A stretch of DNA of 64,000 nucleotides from Minisyncoccota bacterium (GTDB taxonomy: Bacteria; Patescibacteriota; Minisyncoccia; Phycocordibacterales; CALRHW01). The DNA is taken from assembly GCA_046350795.1 (NCBI GenBank), contig JAXLZT010000001.1, positions 80,468-144,467 of the forward strand, given 5' to 3'. Made by a program: the position numbers and the translations under genes. Positions 3,957 through 64,000 of this stretch are shown piece after piece; the stretch's first letter is position 1, and each line of letters begins with the position of its first letter. Under the pieces are notes generated by a model that searched no databases, was not told the DNA's origin, and worked only from the letters and a program-made list of their open reading frames with translations.

Positions 3957-4421
3957 ATGAAGGAGAACGACCTAAAAATCGGGAGAAAGGTGGAAGTGAC
4001 TTCCCTTTCCAACACACAGGATTGGGGAATTGATGACCAGTACCTCGCGGGGCGCAAGCTGGGGGCCGTAGGCACAGCGCACAAGGCTGCATTCGGCAGG
4101 TGCGCTGGTCTCTGGTACATCAGGGACAACGATGGGCGACTCTCCGTCTACCACGCAGACGAGCTGAGCATCCCTCGCGCGGAGCTCGAGCTAGAGCTTG
4201 CCGAAGCCAAGAACGCCATCGAGGAGTTGATCGCAAACGTGGATAGAGCGACCAATGAGGTGCTGTACCTGACCACTGCCCTGCACCATCTCTCCAATCT
4301 TCGGAAGGGCTGGTGGCCATTTGTCGCCAAGCACAGGATCGATGACATCTTCAAGGTACTCAAGGAGGCCCGCAGACTCTTTGAAGAAAGACTTGAAAAA
4401 AGCCGTGAGAAGCCGCAGTAA
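3957..4421 (+). CDS. hypothetical protein, high-GC, coiled-coil C-terminus
   Basis: long ORF with markedly higher GC and different codon usage than neighbours; second ATG preceded by GAAAGGA. Confidence 0.55.
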   Translation: MKENDLKIGRKVEVTSLSNTQDWGIDDQYLAGRKLGAVGTAHKAAFGRCAGLWYIRDNDGRLSVYHADELSIPRAELELELAEAKNAIEELIANVDRATNEVLYLTTALHHLSNLRKGWWPFVAKHRIDDIFKVLKEARRLFEERLEKSREKPQ

Positions 4422-4542
4422 GCGAGACTCACGGCTTTCTCATTTGTCTAAAGTTTTTTAATGGTAGATAATGTATGAGGCGTTCCCGTATCGCGCATTT
4501 ATGCGCAACAGAAGTTTGGGCAACTTACTGGGAGATCACATG

Positions 4543-42686: not shown

Positions 42687-44162
42687 TTATTCTATCTCTT
42701 CCCAAGACAGTATCGTATATTGATCAGATGTAAGAGGAAAACTAGGCGGTGGACCATATAGAAGATTGGCATCATATATTATCTGTCTTGTGTCATATCC
42801 GGTCCCATCTGTATAAGCAAAACCATAACGATTGTAGGTAGCCAACATTCCATACAGAGTAATAATGCTTCTTGTATACCAATTATTTCCACCAGATTTA
42901 CAGCTAGTACTGTAATAATACCTTCCCACTCTGCCGTTTTGTGCCACCAAAGCAGCATCTATACGTAGATCGTTCTCGCTCACCATTCCCACGTTTATAT
43001 CTTTCTGTGCAATAAGAGAAAGAACGTCTTGTCCATCATAGTTTGTATATTTTAAATCATTATTTACTGTAATACTCGTGCGTGTAGACGAGTTATCTGG
43101 AAACTTACCCGAAGCAATGGTGAGTCTAGCTGTATTTATAGTGCCCTCTACCCACAAATTGTCCTCAACAAAAATAATTCCGTTGGTTGGAAAGTTCTGA
43201 TTTGATTGCAAAAGAGTCGTACCATTGACACTCCATGTTCCCCATCCAGTTTGATTTTGAGAATTGGAACAACTACCGGGTGGAGACACCAGTGTGTTTA
43301 CTTTGTATAAATCAAACTTATCATTATTTTTTAAAACTAGTTTATATCCAAGGGCACCAGATCCAGCAAAATATCTTCCAGAAGACTGAGCGCTGGATTT
43401 CATCTGGGCTAAATCAGAAGTAAGACCAGTAAAATCAACTGCTGGCACAGGAAACTGTCTGCCGGCCTCAAAAACATCTGCTCTAGTGGGCACGGGACTA
43501 GTAGGCGGTGCCTCATTTGGACGAAAAGCATCATTTATTCCAGAAGACGGTGGTGCGTTAACATGTGTATGTACAGCAAACTCATTATTACCACTATGAT
43601 CTGGGTCGTCGTACTCAGAAAGAGCACTTGAAATAGTGTTATGTGCCAAACCATCAAAACGAATTCCACCGTTTGAATGAATTGGTCCAAATACTTCTGT
43701 ACCTTCTCCAAAACGCATATCTCCGTTTGAAACAAAAGCAAATTTTGCAAAAGAAGCTATAGCCAACTGTGATTCTATAGTACGAGAGGCGCTGGGATCA
43801 GCGAGTACATTACCGGTAGACCTAATCTTTACAATAGTTGTGCCAGTAGGCGGTGGTGTTATGGTTAAAACAAAATTTCCAACTTCCACACCGTCTTTAT
43901 CATAAAAAGAATGAGTATATGGTCCAGGCTGACCAGTACCATCTTGATAGTCTTGTGGTGCATGAGCTAAATGCCACCTATAATAATCTATCCCTGCTTC
44001 TGCTATTTGTATTGCTTGCTCTCTGTATACAGAGCGTTTTGATAATTTTATATTTGAAGCGCCCCACATAATAAGACCACCCATTACAACCACAGCAATA
44101 GAAGAAAAAACGAGCGCTTGGATTATTAGAAAACCACTTTTTTTGTTTCGAGAAGCTATCAT
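42687..44162 (-). CDS. type IV pilus-associated protein with PilX-like N-terminal anchor (putative minor/tip pilin)
   Basis: N-terminal KKSGFLIIQALVFSSIAVVVMGG hydrophobic helix, large Gly/Asn/Thr-rich beta domain; in pilin cluster. Confidence 0.55.
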   Translation of the reverse strand: MIASRNKKSGFLIIQALVFSSIAVVVMGGLIMWGASNIKLSKRSVYREQAIQIAEAGIDYYRWHLAHAPQDYQDGTGQPGPYTHSFYDKDGVEVGNFVLTITPPPTGTTIVKIRSTGNVLADPSASRTIESQLAIASFAKFAFVSNGDMRFGEGTEVFGPIHSNGGIRFDGLAHNTISSALSEYDDPDHSGNNEFAVHTHVNAPPSSGINDAFRPNEAPPTSPVPTRADVFEAGRQFPVPAVDFTGLTSDLAQMKSSAQSSGRYFAGSGALGYKLVLKNNDKFDLYKVNTLVSPPGSCSNSQNQTGWGTWSVNGTTLLQSNQNFPTNGIIFVEDNLWVEGTINTARLTIASGKFPDNSSTRTSITVNNDLKYTNYDGQDVLSLIAQKDINVGMVSENDLRIDAALVAQNGRVGRYYYSTSCKSGGNNWYTRSIITLYGMLATYNRYGFAYTDGTGYDTRQIIYDANLLYGPPPSFPLTSDQYTILSWEEIE

Positions 44163-44776
44163 AAATTATCTTTCAAATTTCTTGGTGTTACTTGAGATGT
44201 AACAGTAGATGGACCAGGTGGACGATTTACATCTTTATCAATTGTAACGTTGATTTTTATAAGGCGCACTGAAAGCGTATCTACCGGCATAGATAAAGGT
44301 GTAGTAGTGCCAGCATAAGATGAATCATAATAACTAAATATTGGTGAGCTTGTAGCGTTTACCACATTTGTTATTAAAGTTTCTATTTTTTCTGTACCAG
44401 TATAACCCACTGGATTACCCGAAGGATCTACCACACCCTTTTTTAAAGATCCATTTTGTAAATAATAACGCACTTTTTCTTTTGACCCATCATTATCTAT
44501 ATCAGTGTAAAAAGTCATAGTACTAGTGGCCGCCTGAGCTATAGGATATGCACCGGCTGCAGACTGAGACATAGATCGTAATTCCCCCACCATAATACGA
44601 AGCACCCTACCACCTTCAAATTGCGCATTGAGACTACCCTGCAAACTATAATTGAGAGAAAAAATATCTTTCTGAAATGTTGTAATGCCCACTATTATCA
44701 GAGTCAAAATACCGAGCACCACTAGGGTTTCTACAATCGAATATCCGCTATTATTTTTTTTAAATCTAAAATACAT
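44159..44776 (-). CDS. type IV pilin-like protein (prepilin-type N-terminal domain)
   Basis: NNSG-YSIVETLVVLGILTLIIVGI class III signal / methylation motif. Confidence 0.7.
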   Translation of the reverse strand: MYFRFKKNNSGYSIVETLVVLGILTLIIVGITTFQKDIFSLNYSLQGSLNAQFEGGRVLRIMVGELRSMSQSAAGAYPIAQAATSTMTFYTDIDNDGSKEKVRYYLQNGSLKKGVVDPSGNPVGYTGTEKIETLITNVVNATSSPIFSYYDSSYAGTTTPLSMPVDTLSVRLIKINVTIDKDVNRPPGPSTVTSQVTPRNLKDNL

Positions 44777-44780
44777 AAAT

Positions 44781-46559
44781 TTATTCTGGTAAAAGGACAA
44801 TGTCATGTTGTTGCCAATTTGCTGAGACCGGTACAGAATCAGTCACATCCTCATATCCAGTTCTAGAAACAGTTACATCATAAGTGCCAGCAGATAAATC
44901 AGAGAAGAAAGCTTGTCCGGGCGGTATACAAGAGGAGGTATAAGTAAAAGAAATCTGCGCGATATTTGGTGTAAGCGTTGTGCTAGCTGTGTTTAAGAAA
45001 ATTTTATATCTTAAATATTCATTGTTATTGTGTGCTGAACTTAAATCTGGTGTAGAAATTGTGTAATAAGATCCAGCGGTACCATCTGGTCCAATAAAAT
45101 TCCATGTAGCATTGTCATTGTTAGTTGCCACTTTGAAACGTACATTGTCAGCACCAGTATCTGCTGGCTGACCTACAGGCTCCCACAATATCTTATTAAA
45201 ATTGCTTGTCGTACCGGTATCAAAAGTTGAGCTTATCAAAAAACCATCAGTAATATATGTACCGAATACATTTCTCAATCTCAACTCACCTGTCGGATTA
45301 TTTGTCTCAATATTTCCATCTGAACTAAAATACTGATCATCATTTACCATATTTGATTGACCACTACCGCCAGACCAATCACTTTGAGTAGAGAAACCTT
45401 GACCAGTAATAAGGGTTTGAGTGAAAGAACCAGATGTAATAGTCACCTCTGCGCCAGATATCGGTAGTTGTGTACTCGCATCCCTCACAGATACGAGCAG
45501 GCTTTTAGTATTTTTAGGAACCACAATCAAGTCCACGTCTTGGGACGAATTTGGAACAAGAGCAAATGGGTTTGGCGGATTCATACCCACCAAATCATAT
45601 GAGCTATCAGTAAGGTCAACAGTGTATGTATCCCAGCGCATATTTGACACAGTTTTTCTCCCAGAAGAATTTGTAACATGATCCACAGAATATTTCCTTA
45701 CATCAGGATTTGTACCAATAGAAGTAGCGCCGGTAAGTGTAAAATCGATATTTGGCACCGTCGCGCAAGATGGAGTAATACTAGAAAAATTGATGGTGCT
45801 CACGCGATCTATAACCAAAGTGACTTGGGTCACTTGTTGCACTGCCACAGTTGCGTGTGGCTTTATTGGATTTGGATTATTTACATCACCTGAAGTATAT
45901 GTCTGATCACTTGTATACCCGGACTTGCTTACTGTTATCTGATAAGACTGCACTCCAGGTGGCACATCCACCACCTGCAACATACCAGATGTATTGGTAA
46001 CGTCATCAATTACAAGATCCGGATTGGGTTGCGTATTTACAATATGCACATCTGCATCAGATACGGGCTGACCATTTGAATCCAATACCTGAATAAAAAG
46101 TGCGCCATTTGTAGAAGCTGTCTCTAAATTTTTTGGAGCAACCCTAGAAGTAATACTCATTCCAGAAAAATTTTTACATGTATCACAAGTCACCCCTATT
46201 TCCACAAGACGATAGTCAGCTGGAGAGAGATCATTTGGTGATTGACCAATAAGCCCATCAAAAGGATCGTCTATATTTCTTATGGTTGTGGTGACCAAAA
46301 AAGAAACACCGTCTCGCACCAAAGTCTGCTCATGTGGCAAAACACCAGACGGCACAGAGTTGACTATACCTACATCTACATATTCAAGATTGCGAATAAT
46401 TTCAAACTGTTCGTTTATCAAATTCGCAGCTGTTATTTTTACATGCGAAGCGCCTACTACACCATATATAGAAGTAAATCCGCCATAAACACTGACAGAT
46501 ACAAGTAAAAACAGAGCGACTCCCACAAGCACTTCTACTAGAGTAAGACCTTTATTCAT
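44781..46559 (-). CDS. large (592 aa) type IV pilin-like protein with C-terminal beta-sandwich domains
   Basis: MNKG-LTLVEVLVGVALFLLV prepilin N-terminus followed by long Thr/Ser/Asn/Val-rich domains. Confidence 0.7.
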   Translation of the reverse strand: MNKGLTLVEVLVGVALFLLVSVSVYGGFTSIYGVVGASHVKITAANLINEQFEIIRNLEYVDVGIVNSVPSGVLPHEQTLVRDGVSFLVTTTIRNIDDPFDGLIGQSPNDLSPADYRLVEIGVTCDTCKNFSGMSITSRVAPKNLETASTNGALFIQVLDSNGQPVSDADVHIVNTQPNPDLVIDDVTNTSGMLQVVDVPPGVQSYQITVSKSGYTSDQTYTSGDVNNPNPIKPHATVAVQQVTQVTLVIDRVSTINFSSITPSCATVPNIDFTLTGATSIGTNPDVRKYSVDHVTNSSGRKTVSNMRWDTYTVDLTDSSYDLVGMNPPNPFALVPNSSQDVDLIVVPKNTKSLLVSVRDASTQLPISGAEVTITSGSFTQTLITGQGFSTQSDWSGGSGQSNMVNDDQYFSSDGNIETNNPTGELRLRNVFGTYITDGFLISSTFDTGTTSNFNKILWEPVGQPADTGADNVRFKVATNNDNATWNFIGPDGTAGSYYTISTPDLSSAHNNNEYLRYKIFLNTASTTLTPNIAQISFTYTSSCIPPGQAFFSDLSAGTYDVTVSRTGYEDVTDSVPVSANWQQHDIVLLPE

Positions 46560-46567
46560 GGTTTAAA

Positions 46568-47788
46568 TTAAATTGCGTCGGCAAGAGAATACATCGGTCC
46601 GAGCATAGATATCGCAAAAAATCCAACACCGATACCAATAACGACCATCAAAAATGGTTCTATAATGGTCGACATGTCTTTTGTTTTTTGATCAACCTCT
46701 TCTTCATAAAATTGAGCTACGTTTGCAAGCATTTCAGATAATTTTCCTGTCTCCTCTCCAATGCTCACCATCTCCCCCACAAACACCGGGTAAAGTTTTT
46801 CGTGTTTTAAGAAAATATTTGAAACCGGATCTCCTTTTTCTATATTTATCTCAGCCTCTTTTAACACAGCTTTATAATAAGAATTTTGAATAACATCTTG
46901 TGTAATACGTACAGCCACAAGCACATCCACACCAGAAGAAAGTAGAGAAGAAAAAGTACGTGCAGTACGAGCGGAGTTGAGATCTTTTACAATTCCAGAA
47001 ATCACGGGTACGTGAAGCACAAAAGTATCTAAAGCCCTCTTGCCTCTTTTTGTCTTTATAGAAAAATAAAAAACCAAACCAACAGTAATAAGGATTAATA
47101 GATTTATAATAATATGATTTTTCAAAAAGTCTGACAGCCAAATAACCATTTTTGTAGAAAAAGGTAAGGAAACATTCAAATCTTTAAAGGTTGATGTAAG
47201 TGTCGGCACCAAATATATAAGCATCAAAACACCTATAGTAATCATAATAGACAAAATAATTGCTGGATATATGAGCGCTCCACGAATTTTTTTTGTAAGC
47301 TGATAAGCTTTTTCAAGCTGAGCAGACACCACCTTAAGAGACTGAGTGACACTACCGCTTTCCTCTCCAGATTTAACCATTGATACAAAGAGTGAAGAAA
47401 AAACATCCAAATGCTTTGCCATTGCCTCACTTAGAGCACTTCCCTTGCCGATATCAACATTGAGTTCACCTATTACTTTTTTAAATTTCTTATTTTTTGT
47501 CTGTCGCTCCATTACAGAAAGCGCACGCGCCAAAGGCAATCCAGCTTCTATCATTGTGCCGAGGTTTTTTGCAAACATTATCTTGTCTATTGTCTTAACC
47601 CTACCCAGTAGATTGCCAAAATGAATATTTTTAACAAAACCCACTCCATCTTTTTGCTCCTCAGCAAAAGTAACGGTGTCCCCGTCTAGACGAATCTGCT
47701 GATATAGAGCAGATTTACTTTCTGCTTCTTTTACACCACTATATTTTTCACCCGTCTTTTTTACCGCTTTGAAGTTAAATTTTGGCAT
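46568..47788 (-). CDS. pilC: type IV pilus assembly platform protein PilC (GspF family)
   Basis: two T2SS-F repeats, three TM segments. Confidence 0.88.
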   Translation of the reverse strand: MPKFNFKAVKKTGEKYSGVKEAESKSALYQQIRLDGDTVTFAEEQKDGVGFVKNIHFGNLLGRVKTIDKIMFAKNLGTMIEAGLPLARALSVMERQTKNKKFKKVIGELNVDIGKGSALSEAMAKHLDVFSSLFVSMVKSGEESGSVTQSLKVVSAQLEKAYQLTKKIRGALIYPAIILSIMITIGVLMLIYLVPTLTSTFKDLNVSLPFSTKMVIWLSDFLKNHIIINLLILITVGLVFYFSIKTKRGKRALDTFVLHVPVISGIVKDLNSARTARTFSSLLSSGVDVLVAVRITQDVIQNSYYKAVLKEAEINIEKGDPVSNIFLKHEKLYPVFVGEMVSIGEETGKLSEMLANVAQFYEEEVDQKTKDMSTIIEPFLMVVIGIGVGFFAISMLGPMYSLADAI

Positions 47789-47815: not shown

Positions 47816-49570
47816 TTATTCTGATACCACACGCAATATTTCTTCTATTGTGGTCTGACCCTGAACAGCTTTGAAAATGCCGTCTTCTATCATAGACAAC
47901 ATACCTTCGGCTTTTGCTTGTTTCTCTATTTCTTTATCAGTCTTACCCTGCATCACAAGCTCTTTTATAGCTGGAGACACCTTGAGCACTTCGTATATAC
48001 CCACTCGGCCACTAAAAGCTTGCTCAGGGTCTACACCGGCTTTTGGTCTATAAAAAGGTATTTTGTCCCAAGACACTTTTCCTTCTACCACCTTTTCTTC
48101 TTTCAAAAACTTTAAGACACGATCAAGGTCAACGGTTTTTTTCAAAGTTTCTATCTCGGCGTCAGTCAAAAAGTATTTTTCTTTTTTATCAGTAAGTTTA
48201 CGAACGAGACGCTGTGCAATAACTACGTTTAATGTAGAGACGATTAAAAACGGCTCGACTTTCATATCTATGAGACGAGGTATCGCACCTGCAGCTGAGT
48301 TGGTGTGCAGTGTGGAAAGCACGAGATGACCTGTAAGTGATGCGTTGACCGCAAGAGAAGCTGTCTCACCATCACGGATCTCTCCCACCATGATAATGTC
48401 TGGGTCCTGACGCACTAGTGTGCGTAGACCGTTACTAAAGGTCAATCCTATCTCAGACTTTACTTGCGTTTGGTTGATACGATTCATTTGATACTCTACC
48501 GGATCCTCTATAGTAGAAATATTTACGTCAGGCGTATTTAAAATATCAAGCATTGTATATAGAGAAGTGGTCTTTCCAGATCCTGTCGGTCCAGTAGTGA
48601 GTATGAGTCCAGTCGTCTGATTCATTGCCTTGTGTATTTGCTCTAGAGCCTCACCGTGATAACCGAGTACTTCGAGAGTAAATCCAGAAGCTGATTCGCG
48701 AAGCAAACGCATTACAGTCTTTTCTCCGTAGTAAATAGGCAAAGTAGAAACACGGAAAGAAACTTTTTCTCCGTTCATGTCTATTTTAAAGCGACCGTCT
48801 TGTGGTAAACGCTTTTCATCTAGCTTTAGATTTGCGAGCACTTTTATGCGTGCGGTGATACTAGTAGAAATATTTTTAGGTAATGTCATAGCGTCATGAA
48901 GCATACCGTCGATACGGTATCTGACTATCACCTGATTTTCGAGGGGCTCGATGTGAATATCAGAAGCGTTTTGAATAATTGCATGTTTTAAAAGAGTATC
49001 GACTATGCGCACCACAGGCATATCCTCAGCAAGCTTCTTGAGGTCGCTCTCTGACACATCTTCGTTTTCACCTCCATCGGCTACAGCTTTTATGGACACG
49101 GATTCTTTTTGAATCAAATCTCCAAATTCTGCCTTAAGACTTTTTTGATATTGCAAAAGCACACTCTTAATAGATTCGCTATCAGTCAAACGAGGCAATA
49201 TTTTCAATCCAACTTTCTTTTTTACAAAATCAATAGCGGTCAGATTGGCAATATCAAGCATTGCCACCTCGAGTCCCCCAGGTACTTTTTTAAAACCAAC
49301 TATATTGTGATTGCGAGCAATAGGTTCTGGAATAAGAGCGAGCACATCAAAATCTATCTTTATACCCTTTAAATCAACAAAAGGAATACCTAAAATATTA
49401 GCCTGAATCTTGCGCAATTCATCCTCACCTATCTTACCCTTGCTTACAAGTACTTCTCCCACATCAACATCCTTTTCCTCTGCCTCTTTTTCTGCAGAAG
49501 CAAAATCGGCTTTTGATACAAGACCAGAGTCCAAGATGAAATCTTTAAATTGTTTTTCTTCAATGTGCAT
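47816..49570 (-). CDS. pilB: type IV pilus assembly ATPase PilB (GspE family)
   Basis: N-terminal GSPII_E_N domain, Walker A TGPTGSGKTTSLY, Asp box, His box. Confidence 0.92.
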   Translation of the reverse strand: MHIEEKQFKDFILDSGLVSKADFASAEKEAEEKDVDVGEVLVSKGKIGEDELRKIQANILGIPFVDLKGIKIDFDVLALIPEPIARNHNIVGFKKVPGGLEVAMLDIANLTAIDFVKKKVGLKILPRLTDSESIKSVLLQYQKSLKAEFGDLIQKESVSIKAVADGGENEDVSESDLKKLAEDMPVVRIVDTLLKHAIIQNASDIHIEPLENQVIVRYRIDGMLHDAMTLPKNISTSITARIKVLANLKLDEKRLPQDGRFKIDMNGEKVSFRVSTLPIYYGEKTVMRLLRESASGFTLEVLGYHGEALEQIHKAMNQTTGLILTTGPTGSGKTTSLYTMLDILNTPDVNISTIEDPVEYQMNRINQTQVKSEIGLTFSNGLRTLVRQDPDIIMVGEIRDGETASLAVNASLTGHLVLSTLHTNSAAGAIPRLIDMKVEPFLIVSTLNVVIAQRLVRKLTDKKEKYFLTDAEIETLKKTVDLDRVLKFLKEEKVVEGKVSWDKIPFYRPKAGVDPEQAFSGRVGIYEVLKVSPAIKELVMQGKTDKEIEKQAKAEGMLSMIEDGIFKAVQGQTTIEEILRVVSE

Positions 49571-49656: not shown

Positions 49657-50463
49657 TTAATTTTTAACACAATACAACAAAGCAATGTATGGATTTAACA
49701 TGTTCATTGCCTCAGCGTTTCCAGTAGCACCTATACTAGGTGAGGACGTATTTGGATTATCCCAAGGAATGTCTACGTTTTGTTGACAAGTGCCCCCAGA
49801 ACAATAATTTTTTCCTGTATTTCCAAAAGCGTTTACAAGATAATTTCCATTATTATTTATGGTGTGATTATGAGATGCCATCTGTTCTAAAGTCTGTACA
49901 ATAGCCTCCTGACCACCCTTTTGTCCTAAAGTATGATTTGTACTAGCAGTGGATCCACTTCCTGTATTAGAGTTTCCTACTCCCAGTATTACTCTACCTG
50001 CACCATCAGTAAAAGGACTCCATCCAGATGGGCATGAAGATAGGTTGAAAGACATGACCGCACCAGAAGGAGCATTTATCACAACACCGCCACTATTTGT
50101 CGGCCACTGTGTAATACAAGCATCTCCTATACAAAAACCTGTGCGACTTTTTGAGTATCCCACCACATCAAGCATTTGAGTTGGCGCATCTGTACCAATA
50201 CCAACCTTGCCAGCATAAGCAGAAAAACCGAGATCATCTTGCAACACAGCGGCGCCCACAGTAAGTCCTCCTTGTTTTATCTGACCGACTGTACCTAAAT
50301 TTATAGGCGGTCTACATCCAGGCGTAAAGTTGTTAGCACAATCTGGCGGTGGAGATGAAGGCGCACTCCAACCAAAAACAGTTACAGAACCAAAGTAAAA
50401 TACGCAGGTTAAAAGAACAATCTTAATATTTTTTATAATTTCTTTTTTATTATTCATATTCAT
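49657..50463 (-). CDS. secreted phage tail-collar/MdpB-like domain protein, paralog 1
   Basis: signal peptide, conserved CPSGWSPFTDGAGRVILGVG...LGQKGGQEAIVQ...H-x-H...NPYIALLYCVKN resembling tail-collar / microcystin-dependent protein domains. Confidence 0.65.
   Translation of the reverse strand: MNMNNKKEIIKNIKIVLLTCVFYFGSVTVFGWSAPSSPPPDCANNFTPGCRPPINLGTVGQIKQGGLTVGAAVLQDDLGFSAYAGKVGIGTDAPTQMLDVVGYSKSRTGFCIGDACITQWPTNSGGVVINAPSGAVMSFNLSSCPSGWSPFTDGAGRVILGVGNSNTGSGSTASTNHTLGQKGGQEAIVQTLEQMASHNHTINNNGNYLVNAFGNTGKNYCSGGTCQQNVDIPWDNPNTSSPSIGATGNAEAMNMLNPYIALLYCVKN
49895..50051. repeat. 157-bp block 100% identical to 50711-50867 and 51530-51686 (within three paralogous genes)
   Basis: direct comparison of sequence text. 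Confidence 0.9.
50132..50184. repeat. 53-bp block identical to 50939-50991 and 51770-51822
   Basis: direct comparison; encodes QMLDVVGYSKSRTGFC on minus strand. Confidence 0.85.
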
Positions 50464-50469
50464 AATCTT

Positions 50470-51267
50470 CTAAGGTAAATCTTTAGAACAATAAAGCAAT
50501 GTGACATATGGATCCGTAATATTCATTGGACTGCCACCCAAATTGTTATTAACGGTTGGGGTAAAAAAATCTCCAGTAGTAATAATAGAATTTGAACTAA
50601 CACAAGATTGATTGGTGCAAAAATTTTTTTGTTGTTTACCAAGATAGTTCACCCAAATAGGATAGTTGCCGGTCGCGGCATGATTGTGCGGAGGAAGTTG
50701 AGACGCTTCTTGTACAATAGCCTCCTGACCACCCTTTTGTCCTAAAGTATGATTTGTACTAGCAGTGGATCCACTTCCTGTATTAGAGTTTCCTACTCCC
50801 AGTATTACTCTACCTGCACCATCAGTAAAAGGACTCCATCCAGATGGGCATGAAGATAGGTTGAAAGCCGCAACAATAGCGCCAGAAGGTATACTTGATC
50901 CACCAGCATTCCAGTTTTGTATACAACTATCATTGATGCAAAAACCTGTGCGACTTTTTGAGTATCCCACCACATCAAGCATTTGAGTTGGTTCAATAGT
51001 GCCTATACCGGCCTTTCCTTTCAAGACCAAAAGGCTTGGTTGGCTTGCATCCAAACCATAACCAACAGTAAGGCCTCCCTGTTTTATTTGACCGTCACCC
51101 CCCAAGTGTAATGGCGCATCACATCCAGGATAATTTGTAGGGCAATTGGTTGGACTGCCTGGTGGAGGGCTCCATGCTCCATAAACAGCATTTACACCAA
51201 CACTCAAAAAAAATGCAATTACTACTATCTTAAAATTTTGTAATATTTTTTCTTTTAGAAGATTCAT
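50470..51267 (-). CDS. secreted phage tail-collar/MdpB-like domain protein, paralog 2
   Basis: same conserved core as 49657-50463, divergent N- and C-terminal flanks. Confidence 0.65.
   Translation of the reverse strand: MNLLKEKILQNFKIVVIAFFLSVGVNAVYGAWSPPPGSPTNCPTNYPGCDAPLHLGGDGQIKQGGLTVGYGLDASQPSLLVLKGKAGIGTIEPTQMLDVVGYSKSRTGFCINDSCIQNWNAGGSSIPSGAIVAAFNLSSCPSGWSPFTDGAGRVILGVGNSNTGSGSTASTNHTLGQKGGQEAIVQEASQLPPHNHAATGNYPIWVNYLGKQQKNFCTNQSCVSSNSIITTGDFFTPTVNNNLGGSPMNITDPYVTLLYCSKDLP
50711..50867. repeat. 157-bp identical block, copy 2
   Basis: direct comparison. Confidence 0.9.
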
Positions 51268-51279
51268 GGCGTATTTAAA

Positions 51280-52107
51280 TTAATTTTTGGAACAATAAAG
51301 TAATGTGACATATGGATCCATAATATTCATCGGTAACGGACTATCTGAACCTATTGGTTGCAACCACACCGTACCTTGATTGTTATATGCATTTTTAAAA
51401 TTTCCACCACTGCAATTATTTGATCCCTGTTGACAGCTATTAATACTAGGAACACCAATAGGCCTCAACCAACCAGAAGACCCGCCACCATTAAACGAAT
51501 GGCTATGAACTGCCACCTGTGATTCGTCTTGTACAATAGCCTCCTGACCACCCTTTTGTCCTAAAGTATGATTTGTACTAGCAGTGGATCCACTTCCTGT
51601 ATTAGAGTTTCCTACTCCCAGTATTACTCTACCTGCACCATCAGTAAAAGGACTCCATCCAGATGGGCATGAAGATAGGTTGAAAGGTAAAACGGTACCA
51701 GAAGGAAGTTCTACCACATTATCACCGCCAGTCGCCCATGAAAAAGACGTGATACAGCTATCGTTGATGCAAAAACCTGTGCGACTTTTTGAGTATCCCA
51801 CCACATCAAGCATTTGAGTTGGTTCGGTCGTACCTATACCAGCTTTTCCGCCAGCAACAGCAAAGCCAAGAGAATCTGTAGACAAACTTTCACCAAGTAT
51901 TAAACCGCCGTCTTTTATCTGCCCGTAAGATCCAATATGAACTGGTTTATCACAACCAGTAGCGCCAGAAGGGCAATTGTTTTCAATGTTTGGAATACCA
52001 GGTGGACCCACCCAAGCCAAAAGAGTGCTCACCCCTGTGCCAAGCATAAAGGTTAACAAAGCTATTTTCATCCAATCAATAATTTCTTTTTTTATAAAGC
52101 TTTTCAT
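51280..52107 (-). CDS. secreted phage tail-collar/MdpB-like domain protein, paralog 3
   Basis: same conserved core; C-terminus DPYVTLLYCSKN. Confidence 0.65.
   Translation of the reverse strand: MKSFIKKEIIDWMKIALLTFMLGTGVSTLLAWVGPPGIPNIENNCPSGATGCDKPVHIGSYGQIKDGGLILGESLSTDSLGFAVAGGKAGIGTTEPTQMLDVVGYSKSRTGFCINDSCITSFSWATGGDNVVELPSGTVLPFNLSSCPSGWSPFTDGAGRVILGVGNSNTGSGSTASTNHTLGQKGGQEAIVQDESQVAVHSHSFNGGGSSGWLRPIGVPSINSCQQGSNNCSGGNFKNAYNNQGTVWLQPIGSDSPLPMNIMDPYVTLLYCSKN
51530..51686. repeat. 157-bp identical block, copy 3
   Basis: direct comparison. Confidence 0.9.
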
Positions 52108-52116
52108 TTTTTAAAA

Positions 52117-52452
52117 TTATTTTGCTGTCATTGAGTTGATAAGTTTGTTCTTTTTCTCTACGGACAGGCCCGCTTGGCTTGATTTTGCTGTACTAGACTT
52201 TATAAGTGCCTGTCTTTCTTTTTCAGTAAGATTTGATGGGCCTTTTGCTGTCATTGAATTGATAAGTTTTTGTTCTGGAGTCATCTGAGAATCTGGAGAA
52301 GTGCCCGTCTTTTCTTTAAACATAAAAATTATAGCAACAAAAACAATTAGGCACGCTATAAAAATAACAACCCATCTAGTTTTATTGTGTTGAGAGTCGG
52401 CAACTTGATTTATGTTATTTAGATTGTTATCCATGTCATTTAAATTATACAT
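52117..52452 (-). CDS. small single-TM protein with three (L/I)INSMTAKGPS-type repeats
   Basis: TM WVVIFIACLIVFVAIIFMF; repeats seen in translation; ATG overlaps stop of upstream 762-aa gene (translational coupling). Confidence 0.55.
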   Translation of the reverse strand: MYNLNDMDNNLNNINQVADSQHNKTRWVVIFIACLIVFVAIIFMFKEKTGTSPDSQMTPEQKLINSMTAKGPSNLTEKERQALIKSSTAKSSQAGLSVEKKNKLINSMTAK

Positions 52453-54740
52453 TAAAATTCATTTGTATCTGGTTGCGCTACTACAACTATAGAGTTATCA
52501 CATTTTTTAACAGTAGAAACACCATTTACATTTGTAGCTGTAACATAAAGCTCTTTTATTCCAGTTGTAGCATATGTTTTTACAAAGTTTGTATTAGAAC
52601 CCGTAGATGTTGGATTAACATTTGTTCCCTCCCAAGAATATGTTAGTGGATTTAGTGGATCAACAGTCGCTGGTGTAGCCACCCAAGTAACAGGATTGTT
52701 TACCAAATATGGCGGACCGCCCGCTGCTTTACATGAGGCCAAATCGAAAGATGGTACAAGCACTGGAATAGTAACTGTTTTTTCTGGAATAGAAGATTGG
52801 CCCTTAACAATAACTTCGTACATACCAGGGTCAGTATCTGGAGATACATTTATTGAAAGAGTCTTTTGACAATCTGGTTTGCAACTAGCATTTGCAGGCA
52901 GAGACGCTGTGAGTGGTGAGGTAGCACCACCCGGCGCATTTACCTGAACTGATAAATCAACTGTTTCTGTCTTTCCAGAAGTAAGGGTTAAATTGATATC
53001 GGAAGTTACATTGTGAGTTTCTCCCGGAACAGTCCAGCTAGTAAAACCACTCGGTAAAGCAGTAATAGAATAATCAAAAGGAGCTGGAACGCCATAGGTT
53101 ACCTTATGATAACCATTCACAGGATCATTAAACCGGATCCATCCAAGCGCTTCTCCACCCCACATTGATCCCATTATACGAGCAGTCTTTCTGTTGTAAG
53201 TAAGTCCAGCATCTCCGTGTTCATGACTATAGCCGGTTGGGAAAGTATTATCAGAAAGTTTTATCCAACCATCAAATCCTGGAGTGCTATCTCCACTCAA
53301 GACTCTAGCCCAACCAGCAATAGAACCAACATTCTGATCTATGTTTGTTAGACTAGCAACGTCACTTGAATTATTTGGTCCTGTTAGACCACCAAAATTT
53401 ATCCAACCCACAGAATCACTCCAAGCATGACCAGAAAGTGTTCCAGATCCACCCATAACACCGCCATTATTTACACTTACTCCAAAACCACCGGATGTAG
53501 CACAAGGTGAATCGGCCACACCATCCTGATCTTCATCAAAACAACTATTCATCTGTATCCAGCCAATGTTGTCTGACCAAGCATATCCAAAAATATTACC
53601 AATTTCATTTTCTACACACTGGCCATTTACAGGCTCAGTATTGCCCTGACACTTTGCTTCACATTTTGGCGCACTACCAGATGGAGAACTACATGAAGCT
53701 ACTGTTGTATAAGGAGTATCAGCTGTCAGACCGGTGCCATCTCCAGCACAAAGGGTAGAATTTGCAGGAAGAGTACCTGTGCATGAATAGGTGGGAGCTG
53801 GAACACAAGAATCTGAATTACCCGGACCAGGAGAATAAACGTATCCTATGTCACACTCTCTTTCACATTTTGGTGCGCTTCCTGTTGGAACGCTACAAGA
53901 CTGGACCAAATCATACTGTATATTGCCACTAAACCCAGCGTTGTCTCCCGAACAAAGTACTGAATTTGATGCAACATTTCCATTACATGACCCACTCAAA
54001 CCACCTCCACCGGATTGAGTAATAGTGCCTGATTGTCTCCACTCACTCCACAATCCCTGACAGCTATCCCAATTACGCACTGCTATTTTTATAGGTTCTC
54101 CTTGATATTTTGTTGGGGTCTGAAGTTGAGCTACACCACTATATCCAGCAGGAATTACTGGTGGATAATCTACCCATATCGGCACACTTACATCTTCTGG
54201 CTCCTGATTATTTAAAATTACAATAACCTGATGCTCCTCTCCTGTTCCGTTGTTTGCAGCTGGCGGAATAGTAATATTTAGATCGTTTAAACCGGGATTT
54301 ACATACGAACCAGAAAAGCTACCGGATACCCATGTAGGTGGTACTGGAAAATCATTTGTACAAGGACCCTCTTTTCCGCCTCCACCATTGCCTCCATCAC
54401 CATCTGACATTGTTGGAGTGTAATCTTGAATACCTCCCACACCATCATTATCAATAGTAGTTATCTGGCAAGTACCGACGTTTTCAGCAGTACAAGCTGG
54501 TGGATTTCCAATACCGTTCACACCCACACAAAGACCAGACTGACACTGACTATTACTAACACATATACCACCATTTGGGGTGTTATTGGTACAAGAGAGT
54601 ACTGTTGGGTTAGCACCTTTTCCCTCTACACCAGGTGAATGAGCAACAAAAAGCATTCCTCCAAAAAGCACAGCCACAGCTAAAGCAAAAAACAAAAGTG
54701 ATCTATTACGAATAATTCCTTCTTTTATATTTTTCACCAT
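52452..54740 (-). CDS. large Cys-rich secreted surface protein with AWS-x-NIGWI repeats and C-terminal PKD-like domain
   Basis: signal anchor; CSxPxGSAPKCE Cys repeats; four G(Y/W)AWSxNIGWI-like repeats; C-terminal PYLVNNPVTW...YSWEGTN...TTGIKELYVTATNVNG PKD-like; ends ...PDTNEF. Confidence 0.65.
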   Translation of the reverse strand: MVKNIKEGIIRNRSLLFFALAVAVLFGGMLFVAHSPGVEGKGANPTVLSCTNNTPNGGICVSNSQCQSGLCVGVNGIGNPPACTAENVGTCQITTIDNDGVGGIQDYTPTMSDGDGGNGGGGKEGPCTNDFPVPPTWVSGSFSGSYVNPGLNDLNITIPPAANNGTGEEHQVIVILNNQEPEDVSVPIWVDYPPVIPAGYSGVAQLQTPTKYQGEPIKIAVRNWDSCQGLWSEWRQSGTITQSGGGGLSGSCNGNVASNSVLCSGDNAGFSGNIQYDLVQSCSVPTGSAPKCERECDIGYVYSPGPGNSDSCVPAPTYSCTGTLPANSTLCAGDGTGLTADTPYTTVASCSSPSGSAPKCEAKCQGNTEPVNGQCVENEIGNIFGYAWSDNIGWIQMNSCFDEDQDGVADSPCATSGGFGVSVNNGGVMGGSGTLSGHAWSDSVGWINFGGLTGPNNSSDVASLTNIDQNVGSIAGWARVLSGDSTPGFDGWIKLSDNTFPTGYSHEHGDAGLTYNRKTARIMGSMWGGEALGWIRFNDPVNGYHKVTYGVPAPFDYSITALPSGFTSWTVPGETHNVTSDINLTLTSGKTETVDLSVQVNAPGGATSPLTASLPANASCKPDCQKTLSINVSPDTDPGMYEVIVKGQSSIPEKTVTIPVLVPSFDLASCKAAGGPPYLVNNPVTWVATPATVDPLNPLTYSWEGTNVNPTSTGSNTNFVKTYATTGIKELYVTATNVNGVSTVKKCDNSIVVVAQPDTNEF

Positions 54741-57519: not shown

Positions 57520-57891
57520 ATGGATATACAACAAAATGGAATGGGAATGCAAAGTGGAATGAACACACCCCCACCTACACCACAACCACCAGTAATGCCA
57601 ACAATAGAATCTCCAAAGAAAAGCCCAATTGGTCCAATGATTGGTCTAATAGTAATACTGGCAATAATAGTAGTGGGCACATTATATTTTTGGGGCCAAA
57701 GAGTAGATAAAACACAAAATGTTCAACAAAAAACAGAAACACAAACAGAAAATGTAGCACCGGTAGTGACAGACACTCAAACAGAACAGTTACAGGTTCA
57801 AAACACATCAGACGATATAGATTCAATAGACGCTGATCTAAACTCAACAGATTTTGGAAATATAGACTCAGGAGTAGAACAACTACAATAA
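57520..57891 (+). CDS. hypothetical single-TM protein (Pro-rich N-term, acidic/Thr/Gln-rich C-term)
   Basis: TM IGPMIGLIVILAIIVVGTLYFW. Confidence 0.45.
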   Translation: MDIQQNGMGMQSGMNTPPPTPQPPVMPTIESPKKSPIGPMIGLIVILAIIVVGTLYFWGQRVDKTQNVQQKTETQTENVAPVVTDTQTEQLQVQNTSDDIDSIDADLNSTDFGNIDSGVEQLQ

Positions 57892-61309: not shown

Positions 61310-62185
61310 TTATTGAATTCTCACAGCCCAACCGTTTCTTGTTTCTCCACAGTCGTAATCATTTCCTGTGGTTGTACAGTCTGTAGGTGGTACTCCTAAA
61401 ATACTTCCGATACTTGTGCCACCATTTACTACAGTCAAACTTACATATGGAATTGAAGTATACATTTCTCGATCAGCTGCACTATCTCCTATCTGATCCA
61501 TTCTCACCATATTTACCATCCACTTGGCACTAGATCCACCAGGCAAAGCTGGACCTGTACCACCAGTTACAGTACCGGCCCATGAAGTTGCCCACTTTCC
61601 ACCGGTCACACCAATATTATGACCAGGTTCTTGACCGTATGCTTCTGAATATCCAAAGGCAAAAGATACGGTAGCGCCCACACCAGTAGTTTGATTTGAT
61701 CCGGTTCCATATGGCTTCATATTAAGACCTGACTGTGCCTGAGGAAGATCTCTCCACTCCGCAACACCAGATGTACCAATAGCTGTAAGCACTTGCCCAT
61801 TTGAAATAAGACCATCAGAAGCTGTTGCTCCACCACGAATTCTTACTTGACCGCCCACATCAAGCTTGATGTTGTCATTTCCGGTATCATTTAAATAATT
61901 ATTTATAGCGACTCTACCGTTTACTACAAAAAGTCCAGGTGCTCCGGGAGCTGGAGTACCAGAAGATACTATCAACCCTCCTACCTTTGACTGAGCAACA
62001 CCACTTATGTTTATAGGTGGATTACAGCCAGGAATACTCATATCTGTACATACTGGAGGATCACCTGCTGGTGGTGGGGTCCATGCACCATGCACCACTC
62101 CTATGCCCATTACCAAAACAAGAGCAAGTATCAAAACCCTCACACTTTGTAATATTTCTTTTTTAAATGAATTCATTTTTTTCAT
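61310..62185 (-). CDS. secreted protein sharing the N-terminal AW(S/T)PPP...C...GC.PP...Q.K.GGL module with the tail-collar paralogs but with a different Gly/Thr-rich C-terminal domain
   Basis: VHGAWTPPPAGDPPVCTDMSIPGCNPPINISGVAQSKVGGLIV aligns with N-termini of 49657/50470/51280 proteins. Confidence 0.55.
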   Translation of the reverse strand: MKKMNSFKKEILQSVRVLILALVLVMGIGVVHGAWTPPPAGDPPVCTDMSIPGCNPPINISGVAQSKVGGLIVSSGTPAPGAPGLFVVNGRVAINNYLNDTGNDNIKLDVGGQVRIRGGATASDGLISNGQVLTAIGTSGVAEWRDLPQAQSGLNMKPYGTGSNQTTGVGATVSFAFGYSEAYGQEPGHNIGVTGGKWATSWAGTVTGGTGPALPGGSSAKWMVNMVRMDQIGDSAADREMYTSIPYVSLTVVNGGTSIGSILGVPPTDCTTTGNDYDCGETRNGWAVRIQ

Positions 62186-62212: not shown

Positions 62213-62488
62213 TTACTGACTACTCATCGACTTTATTATTTTTGCCATCTCCTCATCTGATATTGTACTTTCTTTTGTACTTGTCATCTCTTTTATAATT
62301 CTTTTACTTTCTTCAGAACTTAATGTCGATGGTCCGGTTGCGGTCATTTCTTCTATTATCCTCTGAGAATCTGTTGCTTCTGGTAAATTGGGAGCGGATG
62401 AGTATTTTTTTATTATCCCAAACACCACCACAATCACCGATATGCACATTATTAGAGTAATAATTTTTTTATTTTTTAAATAATTCAT
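62213..62488 (-). CDS. small single-TM protein with three RIIEEMTATGPS-type repeats (paralog of 52117-52452)
   Basis: TM IITLIMCISVIVVVFGII; repeats RIIEEMTATGPS / RIIKEMTSTKES / KIIKSMSSQ. Confidence 0.55.
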   Translation of the reverse strand: MNYLKNKKIITLIMCISVIVVVFGIIKKYSSAPNLPEATDSQRIIEEMTATGPSTLSSEESKRIIKEMTSTKESTISDEEMAKIIKSMSSQ

Positions 62489-62493
62489 GTTTT

Positions 62494-64000
62494 TTAAAAT
62501 TCACCAGTTTTTGGTTTAGCTAATATCAATACTTCAGCGTCATTACATGTCACAGGTATGCTTCCGCTTGAACTATCTCTAATGGTTAGACTCATTCTTT
62601 TTGTACCAGTAGTTTCATATGATCTATTAAAAGATACTTCTGTGGCATTTGTTGTCTCAGAACTTAAAACAACACCGCGCTCAACCCAATCGTATTGATA
62701 AGGTGGAGTACCTCCCGAAATTTGAGCCTTCCATTCTACTGGCTTGTTTATTACAACAATAGATTTTGTTGATTGTAGAGAGGAACATGTTGGACTAATC
62801 GAAACATCACCACTGATATTCGCAGTAACTGTTACCGGTATATCTATTGATTTTGTTGGTAAATCAGCTGTTGTCGCTTTTACACGAACATTATAAAGTC
62901 CCGGAGTAGTAAGCGTTCCAGCATTAACGGTAAGTGTTTTTTCACATGCAGGGGCCGGCGGTGTCGTAGGAATACATTTATTATTTCCATTAAAAGAAAC
63001 ACTTAAAGGATGGAGTAAATCATTGTTTGTAACGAGAGAAGCCAGAGTAACTTCTTGCGCTACAGGATTATCTAAAATAACACCAATTTTTGTTGTCTTT
63101 GAGCTTCTTTGCGTCATGGAAAGAGATGCGGGTGTCGCTGTAAGATGATAATTAAAAGTATTTGTTGGCACACTATATGTAACATCAGAAAAATTAACCC
63201 AACCCAACACATCACCACCCCAAGCATATCCTACGATGTGAGCTGTTGGCTTATTGAAAGTAACCCCAGCCAATCCATCGGTATGAGTAGGGCCAGATGG
63301 AAAAGAAGTACCGGCCAGACTAAGCCAACCATCCCAGCCAGATGTATTGTCACCCCAAAAAGCTCTTGCCCACCCACGAATAGTGGCTTGGTCTGGCATT
63401 AATTCTGCATTTACGGATTCTGTTCCACCGCCAGACGGAAAACCAGACAAGCCACCAAATTTAATAAAACCAATATTTGGACTCCAAGCATAACCAGTAA
63501 TGGTTCCAGGACCAGACGGTATGTTTGTGCTCACATCATTATTTGCATTATTGATTCTCACACCATAGCTGTTTGGTCCACAACTTCCAGAATCAGCAAA
63601 ACCGTTATGATCTTCATCTTTACAACTATTCATACTTATCAAACCAATATTTGAAGACCATGCCCAACCATACACATTACCCGTTTCAGTCATAGCAGAA
63701 ACAACTTCACACTTTGTATTTTGTGTACAACTAGAAACCACTGACCATGGTGTATTTTGTGTCACATTGGTATCACCGGGACACACTTGACCAGGTGGTT
63801 GTGTACCAACGCAAGAGGGCGCTGGTGGCAAAACACAAACACCGCCCTGATTTATATATGGCGCATTACAAGTCATTTCACACTTTTTACCGTCGGTACA
63901 AGCAGAAACGATTGACCATGGCACATCTCCGGATACACCATCTGTATCATTTGGACAAACTGTATTATTGGAAGGATCTGGTGGTGTACCAACACATTGA
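62494..64000 (-). CDS. large Cys-rich surface protein with AWS-x-NIGWI repeats and C-terminal PKD-like domain (paralog of 52452-54740), N-terminus beyond window
   Basis: frame stays open to 64000 with repeat CVGTPPDP...VCPNDTDG...PWSIVSACT; YGWAWSSNIGLI, GYAWSPNIGFI, GYAWGGDVLGWVNF repeats; PYQYDWVERG...TTGTKRMSLTIRD PKD-like; ends ...PKTGEF. Confidence 0.65.
   Translation of the reverse strand, partial: QCVGTPPDPSNNTVCPNDTDGVSGDVPWSIVSACTDGKKCEMTCNAPYINQGGVCVLPPAPSCVGTQPPGQVCPGDTNVTQNTPWSVVSSCTQNTKCEVVSAMTETGNVYGWAWSSNIGLISMNSCKDEDHNGFADSGSCGPNSYGVRINNANNDVSTNIPSGPGTITGYAWSPNIGFIKFGGLSGFPSGGGTESVNAELMPDQATIRGWARAFWGDNTSGWDGWLSLAGTSFPSGPTHTDGLAGVTFNKPTAHIVGYAWGGDVLGWVNFSDVTYSVPTNTFNYHLTATPASLSMTQRSSKTTKIGVILDNPVAQEVTLASLVTNNDLLHPLSVSFNGNNKCIPTTPPAPACEKTLTVNAGTLTTPGLYNVRVKATTADLPTKSIDIPVTVTANISGDVSISPTCSSLQSTKSIVVINKPVEWKAQISGGTPPYQYDWVERGVVLSSETTNATEVSFNRSYETTGTKRMSLTIRDSSSGSIPVTCNDAEVLILAKPKTGEF

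Follow-up and report, generated by a model that had tools for sequence, protein, structure and literature searches.

The 64,000-nucleotide (nt) stretch of Minisyncoccota DNA analyzed here (the window) encodes two related cassettes on its minus strand, in each of which a gene for a small membrane protein lies directly downstream of a gene for an AWS-repeat protein, as the original prediction had stated, and upstream of one or more fibre-family genes. The small gene of cassette 1 occupies 52117..52452 (minus strand; stop codon 52117-52119) and is given as 111 amino acids (aa) in the open reading frame (ORF) listing, and that of cassette 2 occupies 62213..62488 (minus strand; 91 aa). Both small ORFs are real genes. 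Their products have a single transmembrane (TM) helix followed by three repeat units, a plan that is shared throughout an unannotated protein family, so far known only from Patescibacteria, and the gene is linked in many genomes to the same two partners. From the sequences and their genomic context, we infer that the small protein may be a membrane-proximal tether or assembly adaptor of an AWS/fibre surface module, a role that we put forward tentatively, as the leading candidate among several.

Architecture of the small proteins and their family

The small proteins are identical to the NCBI hypothetical proteins U0522_00800 (cassette 1) and U0522_00855 (cassette 2), and they share 31% identity with each other. 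Orthologues of the cassette-1 protein were found in other assemblies at 76% and 55% identity, and the search for the cassette-2 protein yielded one orthologue (L006; loci outside the window are referred to by such numbers). The ratio of nonsynonymous to synonymous substitution rates (dN/dS) against close orthologues was 0.17-0.22 for cassette 1 and 0.11 for cassette 2 versus L006, and both small ORFs are therefore protein-coding genes under purifying selection.

Each protein has one hydrophobic segment of 19 residues, at 27-45 in the 111-aa protein (mean Kyte-Doolittle hydropathy 3.23) and at 8-26 in the 91-aa protein (2.82; 62411-62467), which confirms the two ORFs with one TM helix each that had been described previously. 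In the AlphaFold2 model of the cassette-1 protein, the TM helix spans residues 22-47 in the 111-aa numbering (52312..52389, minus strand), with a predicted local distance difference test score (pLDDT) of up to 94. The three tandem copies claimed for each protein also stood when compared with shuffled sequences: the best self-diagonal repeat scores were 43 (111 aa) and 93 (91 aa) against shuffle means of ~23 (standard deviation 4.7), and the observed score was reached by 2 of 2000 shuffles in the former case and by 0 of 2000 in the latter. The repeat of the cassette-1 gene is visible in the DNA too, as three copies at 63- and 60-nt spacing. This spacing, together with the self-diagonals, gives a repeat period of 20-21 aa and not the ~16 residues first proposed, and the modal spacing in the family (91 members) is 20 aa.

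The units of the cassette-1 protein, all on the minus strand, are unit 1 (MTPEQKLINSMTAKGPSNLT; 52225..52284; AlphaFold2 helix 59-67), unit 2 (EKERQALIKSSTAKSSQAGLS; 52162..52224; helix 77-87), and unit 3 (VEKKNKLINSMTAK; 52120..52161; helix 98-108), and the protein terminates directly after the last helix; the three units of the cassette-2 protein lie at 62216-62377. What is triplicated in both proteins is the core [LI]-[IL]-x-S-M-[TS]-A, which follows an [ST]-x-x-E helix cap, while the complete M-T-A-x-G-P-S motif, to which the triplication had been ascribed, occurs only in unit 1 of each protein. The AlphaFold2 model built with the family alignment (pLDDT 72; predicted template modeling score 0.27) consists of the TM helix and a tail of three short helices with no beta strands and no confident packing, which is more in keeping with a binding module than with one that folds by itself.

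The junction of the cassette-1 small gene with the 762-aa AWS gene reads TAATG in the window, where the ATG (52450-52452) shares its A with the TAA (52452-54). The overlap of start and stop noted earlier is thus true of the window, but both orthologous loci read TAAGG at this junction, without the ATG. In every orthologue the protein begins at the counterpart of M7 (window ATG 52432-52434), 18 nt past the stop, and it follows that the cassette-1 product is likely to be 105 aa and that the overlap is not conserved; it is a peculiarity of the window genome. In cassette 2, the AWS stop lies 5 nt ahead of the ATG of the small gene. Co-transcription of the cassette genes is plausible, while the specific translational coupling of the small gene to the AWS gene that was originally claimed is not supported. 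No Shine-Dalgarno-like motif was found in the 40 nt upstream of each of 22 window genes examined, and scanning the surroundings of the cassette for promoters and terminators revealed nothing in excess of the shuffled expectation, with no terminator-like sites between the genes beyond chance. The small gene's conserved ATG is preceded at a distance of 9-11 nt by a GTATAAT element (window junction 52435-52455), kept in the window, L001, and L002, which might serve as an internal promoter and yield a nearly leaderless transcript.

An exhaustive HMMER profile search over 1.84 billion cluster representatives (clusters at 50% identity) recovered at least 89 clusters of the family at E<=1e-3, with 16 at E<=1e-10; an unrelated 464-aa repeat protein was left out of the family set. 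A word-indexed homologue search recovered only five, later seven, small-family proteins, and degenerate DNA or peptide patterns covered 3-16% of the known members at usable specificity. The members are all 85-150 aa in length, nearly all of them matched over most of it, and they have in common a short polar N-terminus, a TM helix, and three units (e.g., LTPEQRAEIIKSLQA or LSDEERSAILESLSN). Every one of 91 members has a strong TM segment (median Kyte-Doolittle 3.08; median length 104 aa), and a hidden Markov model (HMM) of the unit detected three units in 65 of them, most of the remainder visibly having three diverged units. The window proteins, which match the family profile at E=3.6e-36 and 1.4e-28, conform to this plan, with three ~20-aa units of the form [ST]xxE...[LI][IL]xS[ML][TS]A and an end after the third helix. 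Because the 6357 tail residues of the 91 members include just 2 Cys and 1.9% aromatics, a conventional hydrophobic core is impossible. Summed over the same members, the TM flanks carry net charges of +122 (N side) and +47 (C side), in favour of an N-in/C-out orientation of the small proteins.

The small proteins have no significant match in Pfam, NCBIfam, PHROG (no family at E<=1e-3 for either protein), or PDB sequences, where the best profile match was FliL (E=0.031) over the TM region only. No description of the small family or of the three-gene module was found in the literature searched, and neither is annotated in any library searched. A direct scan of GTDB with a 13-sequence alignment of the small family matched 25 stretches, none of which was confirmed by tblastn; in a 42-sequence alignment, no stretch was conserved well enough for such a scan. 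Opposite-strand matches to the small-family HMM in GTDB loci belong to another single-TM family, matched via its TM segment, and were excluded. The window representative of this other family is a 123-aa single-TM protein encoded between ppa and tig (57520-57891, plus strand), which cross-matches the small-family HMM through its TM segment only; relatives of this product (C-terminus ..DLDAQLKDIDYSF) are present in many GTDB loci.

Genomic association with AWS-repeat and fibre-family genes

Genome contexts were fetched for family members spanning the range of E-values, down to ~25-30% identity, and every member with usable flanks adjoins an AWS-repeat or fibre-family gene (the window twice, L007, L011, L012, L013, and L016). 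The close relatives L001-L008 retain the order AWS, small, fibre. The distant members have the same partners in altered order. In L011, L013, and L016, the small gene is directly followed by an AWS-repeat gene, and in L011 a fibre-family gene lies further along and there is no pilBC nearby. The small gene of L012, from a high-GC lineage, is followed by the gene for a 924-aa fibre-family protein and then by PilB-PilC. On two short contigs the upstream neighbour is a larger protein: in L009 the small gene comes after the C-terminal end of a partial protein with a weak AWS match (E=4.9e-7), and in L010 the upstream protein has no profile match and a PKD-like end that is similar by eye only.

From the AWS side, one genome per GTDB species was scanned with an AWS-domain alignment, and at least 553 loci were confirmed by tblastn; the counts given here rest on the best 80 of these (958 kb), which were HMM-scanned. 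Nearly all of the 80 come from Patescibacteria (Paceibacterota, Taylor-, Nomura-, Kaiser-, Wolfe-, Yonath-, Harrison-, and Nealsonbacteria among others). In 26-28 of the 80 loci, a small-family member and an AWS or fibre gene share a strand and lie no more than 250 nt apart, while random placement of one or two copies in a 0.5-1 Mb genome is estimated to produce this in well under 1% of loci. Association was tested in the 41 loci in which the AWS gene is flanked by at least 2.5 kb on each side. Where a fibre gene lies nearby, 16 of 20 of these loci contain the small gene, as against 4 of 21 where none does (odds ratio [OR] 17, Fisher p=1.4e-4), and no association was seen with PilB in the same locus (8/20 vs 8/21; OR 1.1). 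The presence of the small gene thus tracks the fibre gene at least as well as the AWS gene.

The gene orders seen were small-AWS(-fibre) in 13 cases, AWS-small-fibre in 8, small-fibre(-AWS) in 4, fibre-small-fibre in 2, and fibre-small-AWS in 2, and duplicated cassettes, each retaining its small gene, are present in the window, L037, and L076. PilB is encoded within 8 kb in 21 of the 80 AWS loci. Co-occurrence of the small and AWS families elsewhere, which the original prediction had itself named as the test of their partnership, therefore holds from both sides, though most AWS loci lack a detectable member and the fibre family is a partner as well; taken together, these contexts indicate that the association is with a three-gene module of small, AWS, and fibre genes.

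In L018, a TM protein of 85 aa that has two helical repeats (VIIQNQLDELDSIR / EEIQIQLDELESLR) is encoded at 4266-4523 (plus strand), upstream of an AWS and fibre pair from which it is separated by a 91-aa TM protein. Its family match is weak (E=1.2e-3), and it may be either a very divergent member or an analogue in the same position.

The AlphaFold2 model of the AWS region is all-beta (pLDDT 85.5). Structure searches with this model returned only Ig/FnIII/PKD-type matches, which were to the C-terminal domains, and no structural or Pfam relative of the AWS repeat domain was detected. The AWS C-termini (window 52455-52470 and 62497-62512; L020-L099) carry a conserved hydrophobic-x-E-x-COOH tail (e.g., DTNEF, KTGEF, FEEF, IEEI, and WKEI), and a second class has the form LPxWxE[IV]xP[FW]. 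Of 73 complete AWS C-termini, about three-quarters were judged by eye to have such a tail (30 by the strict pattern), which could act as a docking or sorting peptide.

The fibre-family proteins carry a signal peptide of the Sec type, their mature N-terminus is conserved (W[TS]xP..PP..N..AP[IL]N[VI]G...Q.K.G.L), and they range from 250 to >1000 aa with highly variable C-termini. Among ten members sampled, Peptidase_S74 was found in five and collagen triple-helix repeats in two. Domains of the endosialidase type, which act as intramolecular chaperones, and collagen repeats are both hallmarks of obligate trimers and trimeric fibres, and the family is therefore treated here as secreted trimeric fibre-like proteins, in which we take the conserved N-terminus for a putative common attachment end and the C-termini for variable tips. 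The family is multi-copy in many loci (e.g., eight copies in L097). The three fibre paralogues of window cassette 1 share a 189-nt core at 89-94% DNA identity and differ in their tips, a pattern that suggests gene conversion or cassette-style diversification of the tips.

Possible roles of the small protein

As a membrane-proximal tether or assembly adaptor, the small protein would be bitopic, with a short cytoplasmic N-terminus, one TM helix with no signal-peptidase site after it, and an extracytoplasmic tail of ~65 residues. Each ~20-residue unit of the tail would form a short amphipathic helix, opened by the [ST]-x-x-E cap and followed by a G/P/S-rich linker, and this helix would present a narrow hydrophobic stripe (L, I, M, and A at i, i+1, i+4, and i+6). 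The small protein would be the only integral-membrane component of the recurring module, its AWS and fibre partners being predicted to be Sec-exported, and its three helical units would dock onto these partners on the outside of the membrane. Such docking may tether the surface fibre apparatus, or nucleate its assembly, in a cell lacking an outer membrane. The presence of three units throughout the family suggests engagement of a fibre trimer, each unit perhaps matching one of the three chains.

Several observations weigh against this reading. About 60% of AWS loci, and 4 of the 20 loci with both AWS and fibre genes, have no detectable small-family member, and L017 has unrelated TM proteins in the position of the small gene; it follows that neither partner requires the small protein, or that the latter has diverged beyond detection. 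The AWS proteins have an N-terminal hydrophobic segment of their own, which might itself be an anchor, and fibres with a Peptidase_S74 domain can trimerise unaided. A tail of ~65 residues is short relative to the cell wall, the positive-inside signal is only moderate because both TM flanks are basic, and the match between three units and a trimer is so far a numerical coincidence. A bolder form of the proposal, which we consider unlikely, would make the small protein the membrane socket of an undescribed surface apparatus of Patescibacteria: a pseudo-threefold single-chain anchor, each helical unit of which would grip one chain of a trimeric adhesin derived from phage tail fibres, with a shared N-terminal plug and swappable receptor-binding tips, and with the AWS/Ig protein as base or stalk. 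Episymbionts would thus recognise their hosts by domesticated phage receptor-binding proteins.

The small protein could instead be a membrane-tethered extracytoplasmic folding chaperone, whose helical units bind AWS or fibre chains transiently and are absent from the final structure. We regard this as the nearest competitor of the tether or adaptor, though not a probable one, and it would follow the logic of known systems such as Lif, CpaB, and the Spy/CpxP LTXXQ proteins. It would draw on the same genomic linkage and on the same N-terminal anchor with a helical tail that lacks a core, and a precedent is documented in Acinetobacter (PMC4713064), in which membrane-associated chaperones are encoded beside their secreted substrates. 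The membrane-anchored steric chaperones Lif/LipB (lipase-specific foldase) and Acinetobacter CpaB resemble the small protein in their N-terminal single TM anchor, their extracytoplasmic helical region, and the location of their genes beside a Sec-exported partner. However, the helical domain of Lif and CpaB is ~300 aa and wraps its substrate, whereas the tail of the small protein is far smaller (~65 aa, three short repeats), and their partners are enzymes rather than beta-repeat and fibre proteins; no Pfam match links the small proteins to Lif or CpaB, and the likeness is an architectural analogy only. The repeats start with L-[ST]-x-E-[EQ], resembling LTXXQ, and Spy, CpxP, and ZraP share with the small protein such L-T-x-x-Q/E-type helix caps, an extracytoplasmic location, and a helical Cys-free composition. 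Spy proteins are, however, soluble cradle-shaped dimers of long helices, while the small protein has three ~10-residue helices on a membrane anchor and no packing in the AlphaFold2 model. Membership of the LTXXQ / Spy-CpxP-ZraP clan (PF13801 and PF07813) was rejected: the window proteins have no match, and among 42 members one has a weak match to Metal_resist (E=1.2e-3), below the curated threshold, and the other 41 have none. We read the LTXXQ resemblance as probably a generic helix N-cap and not homology. Small helical helpers encoded beside trimeric fibre genes are also known from phages (T4 gp57A and Tfa-type proteins), and assistance to trimerisation is possible in principle, but these helpers are cytoplasmic and soluble, whereas the small protein is membrane-anchored and cellular, and neither small protein has a PHROG match at E<=1e-3, so that identity as a phage tail-fibre assembly chaperone was discarded. 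Many fibre-family members already have an intramolecular chaperone domain of their own (Peptidase_S74), which tells against a dedicated folding helper, and the data fit transient and stable binding alike.

Proximity to pilus genes raises another possibility, namely that the small protein is a type IV pilus accessory or secretion partner that links AWS/fibre cargo to PilB/PilC-driven assembly, for example by loading tip adhesins or pushing proteins through the wall. In the window, L007, L012, L020, L026, L039, L051, and L062, pilB-pilC and pilin genes follow immediately downstream of the module, PilB is close by in about a quarter of the loci sampled (21/80, as above), and type IV pili are a signature of host interaction in the Candidate Phyla Radiation (CPR; PMC6744442). 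Yet the small gene is independent of PilB (OR 1.1), the module of L011 has no pilBC nearby, and cassette 2 lies ~12.6 kb from pilB, past nine unrelated genes (NusA to ClpP). PilN, PilO, and the M protein of type II secretion systems (T2SS) do resemble the small protein in having a single N-terminal TM helix and an extracytoplasmic helical segment, and their genes are often beside pilB/pilC, but they have a ferredoxin-like domain, which the small protein lacks; with a tail of three short helices and just one of 42 members matching T2SSM (E=0.009), this identity was rejected. So was that of a type IV pilin or pseudopilin, as there is no N_methyl (PF07963) or TIGR02532 match and no GFxxxE motif in the small proteins, while the neighbouring 592-aa and 215-aa gene products do match. 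We therefore find a role in the pilus improbable, more so than the chaperone. Somewhat easier to entertain, though still doubtful, is a small envelope or regulatory membrane protein that is merely syntenic with the module, such as a wall or membrane organiser in a conserved nusA ... tpi-pgk neighbourhood. The region between nusA/ppa/tig and tpi/pgk is conserved in several lineages, so part of the adjacency is inherited synteny, and most AWS loci have no small gene. Passive synteny does not lead one to expect the association with the fibre gene (p=1.4e-4), however, and the small gene stays within 250 nt of a partner although the module order is permuted, and is retained in each of the duplicated cassettes (window, L037, and L076). 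Finally, the ORFs are short, AT-rich, and annotated only as 'hypothetical protein', as a chance ORF or low-complexity artefact would be, but this explanation is refuted and its probability is negligible: dN/dS is 0.11-0.22, 89 clusters have like length and architecture, the repeats beat the shuffles, and the position is conserved.

The window cassettes and the significance of the module

The minus-strand order of cassette 1 is the AWS gene (762 aa), the small gene, three fibre paralogues (265-275 aa), PilB, PilC, two pilin-like genes, a 491-aa gene, tpi, and pgk. The AWS-repeat secreted protein (52452..54740, minus strand) has an N-terminal signal/anchor, a Cys-rich region, four GxAWSxxxGWIxF-type beta repeats, then Ig/PKD-like domains, and a C-terminal ..DTNEF. 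The fibre-family proteins, all on the minus strand, are fibre 1 (275 aa; 51280..52107), with a signal peptide, an AW..PPG..CP..GCD.P.H.G..GQIK.GGL N-terminus, and a tail-collar-like C-terminus; fibre 2 (265 aa; 50470..51267), with a PHROG tail protein match (8e-8), a weak Gp10_C match, and the shared 189-nt core; and fibre 3 (268 aa; 49657..50463), with PHROG matches to a tail protein (3e-7) and a tail collar fibre protein (1.4e-4). They are followed on the same strand by the type IV pilus assembly ATPase PilB (47816..49570; T2SSE 1.9e-124, MshEN), the platform protein PilC (46568..47788; T2SSF 1.2e-53), and the two pilin-like genes (592 aa and 215 aa; 44159..46559), which have N_methyl, CarboxypepD_reg, and TIGR02532 matches and a prepilin N-terminal methylation motif. 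The 491-aa gene after them (42687-44162, minus strand) has a pilin-like N-terminal segment (KKSGFLIIQALVF) and no family match; its synteny is kept in L007, where it is 502 aa, and its product is perhaps a minor pilin of large size or a protein associated with the pilus.

Cassette 2 consists of an AWS gene that runs off the window edge, the small gene, and a gene for a 291-aa fibre-family protein (61310..62185, minus strand), the N-terminal domain of which (AWTPPPAG..C..PGCNPPINISGVAQSKVGGL) is common to the cassette-1 paralogues. The AWS-repeat gene (62494..64000, minus strand) ends ..KTGEF and is open to the window end, and its orthologue in L006 is 803 aa. Its listed GTG start (63924-64000, minus strand) is a window-edge artefact, the frame being open to 63999. 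The AWS proteins had been described as giant surface proteins, and the word giant is generous for 762 aa and for the 803 aa of the cassette-2 orthologue. The AWS regions of the two cassettes share 37% identity, and partner-specific co-divergence would produce the situation in which each cassette keeps its own diverged small, AWS, and fibre genes.

To our knowledge, little is understood of how uncultivated Patescibacteria recognise and attach to their hosts outside the work on the pilus of Saccharibacteria. Most families of proteins showing CPR enrichment lack annotation and comprise membrane or surface (TM) proteins with links to pili (Méheust et al.; PMC6744442). Taken alone, the small protein amounts to a modest find, namely a hypothetical-protein family that is new and whose genomic partner is clear, and a small accessory membrane protein of a surface module is of a familiar sort that involves no new principle. 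The main interest lies in the module, that is, in phage-fibre-like proteins on what may be a dedicated anchor in host-dependent bacteria. It is compact and recurs across Patescibacteria (at least 553 AWS loci in GTDB species representatives, about one-third of the 80 sampled having the small gene), and it combines a three-repeat protein anchored in the membrane, a beta-repeat/Ig protein whose C-terminal tail is conserved, and multi-copy proteins with phage tail-fibre domains at their variable ends. If the small protein is indeed the anchor or assembly factor, it would offer a short, conserved handle for testing the display of the fibres, and the module would link phage receptor-binding domains to cellular host recognition.

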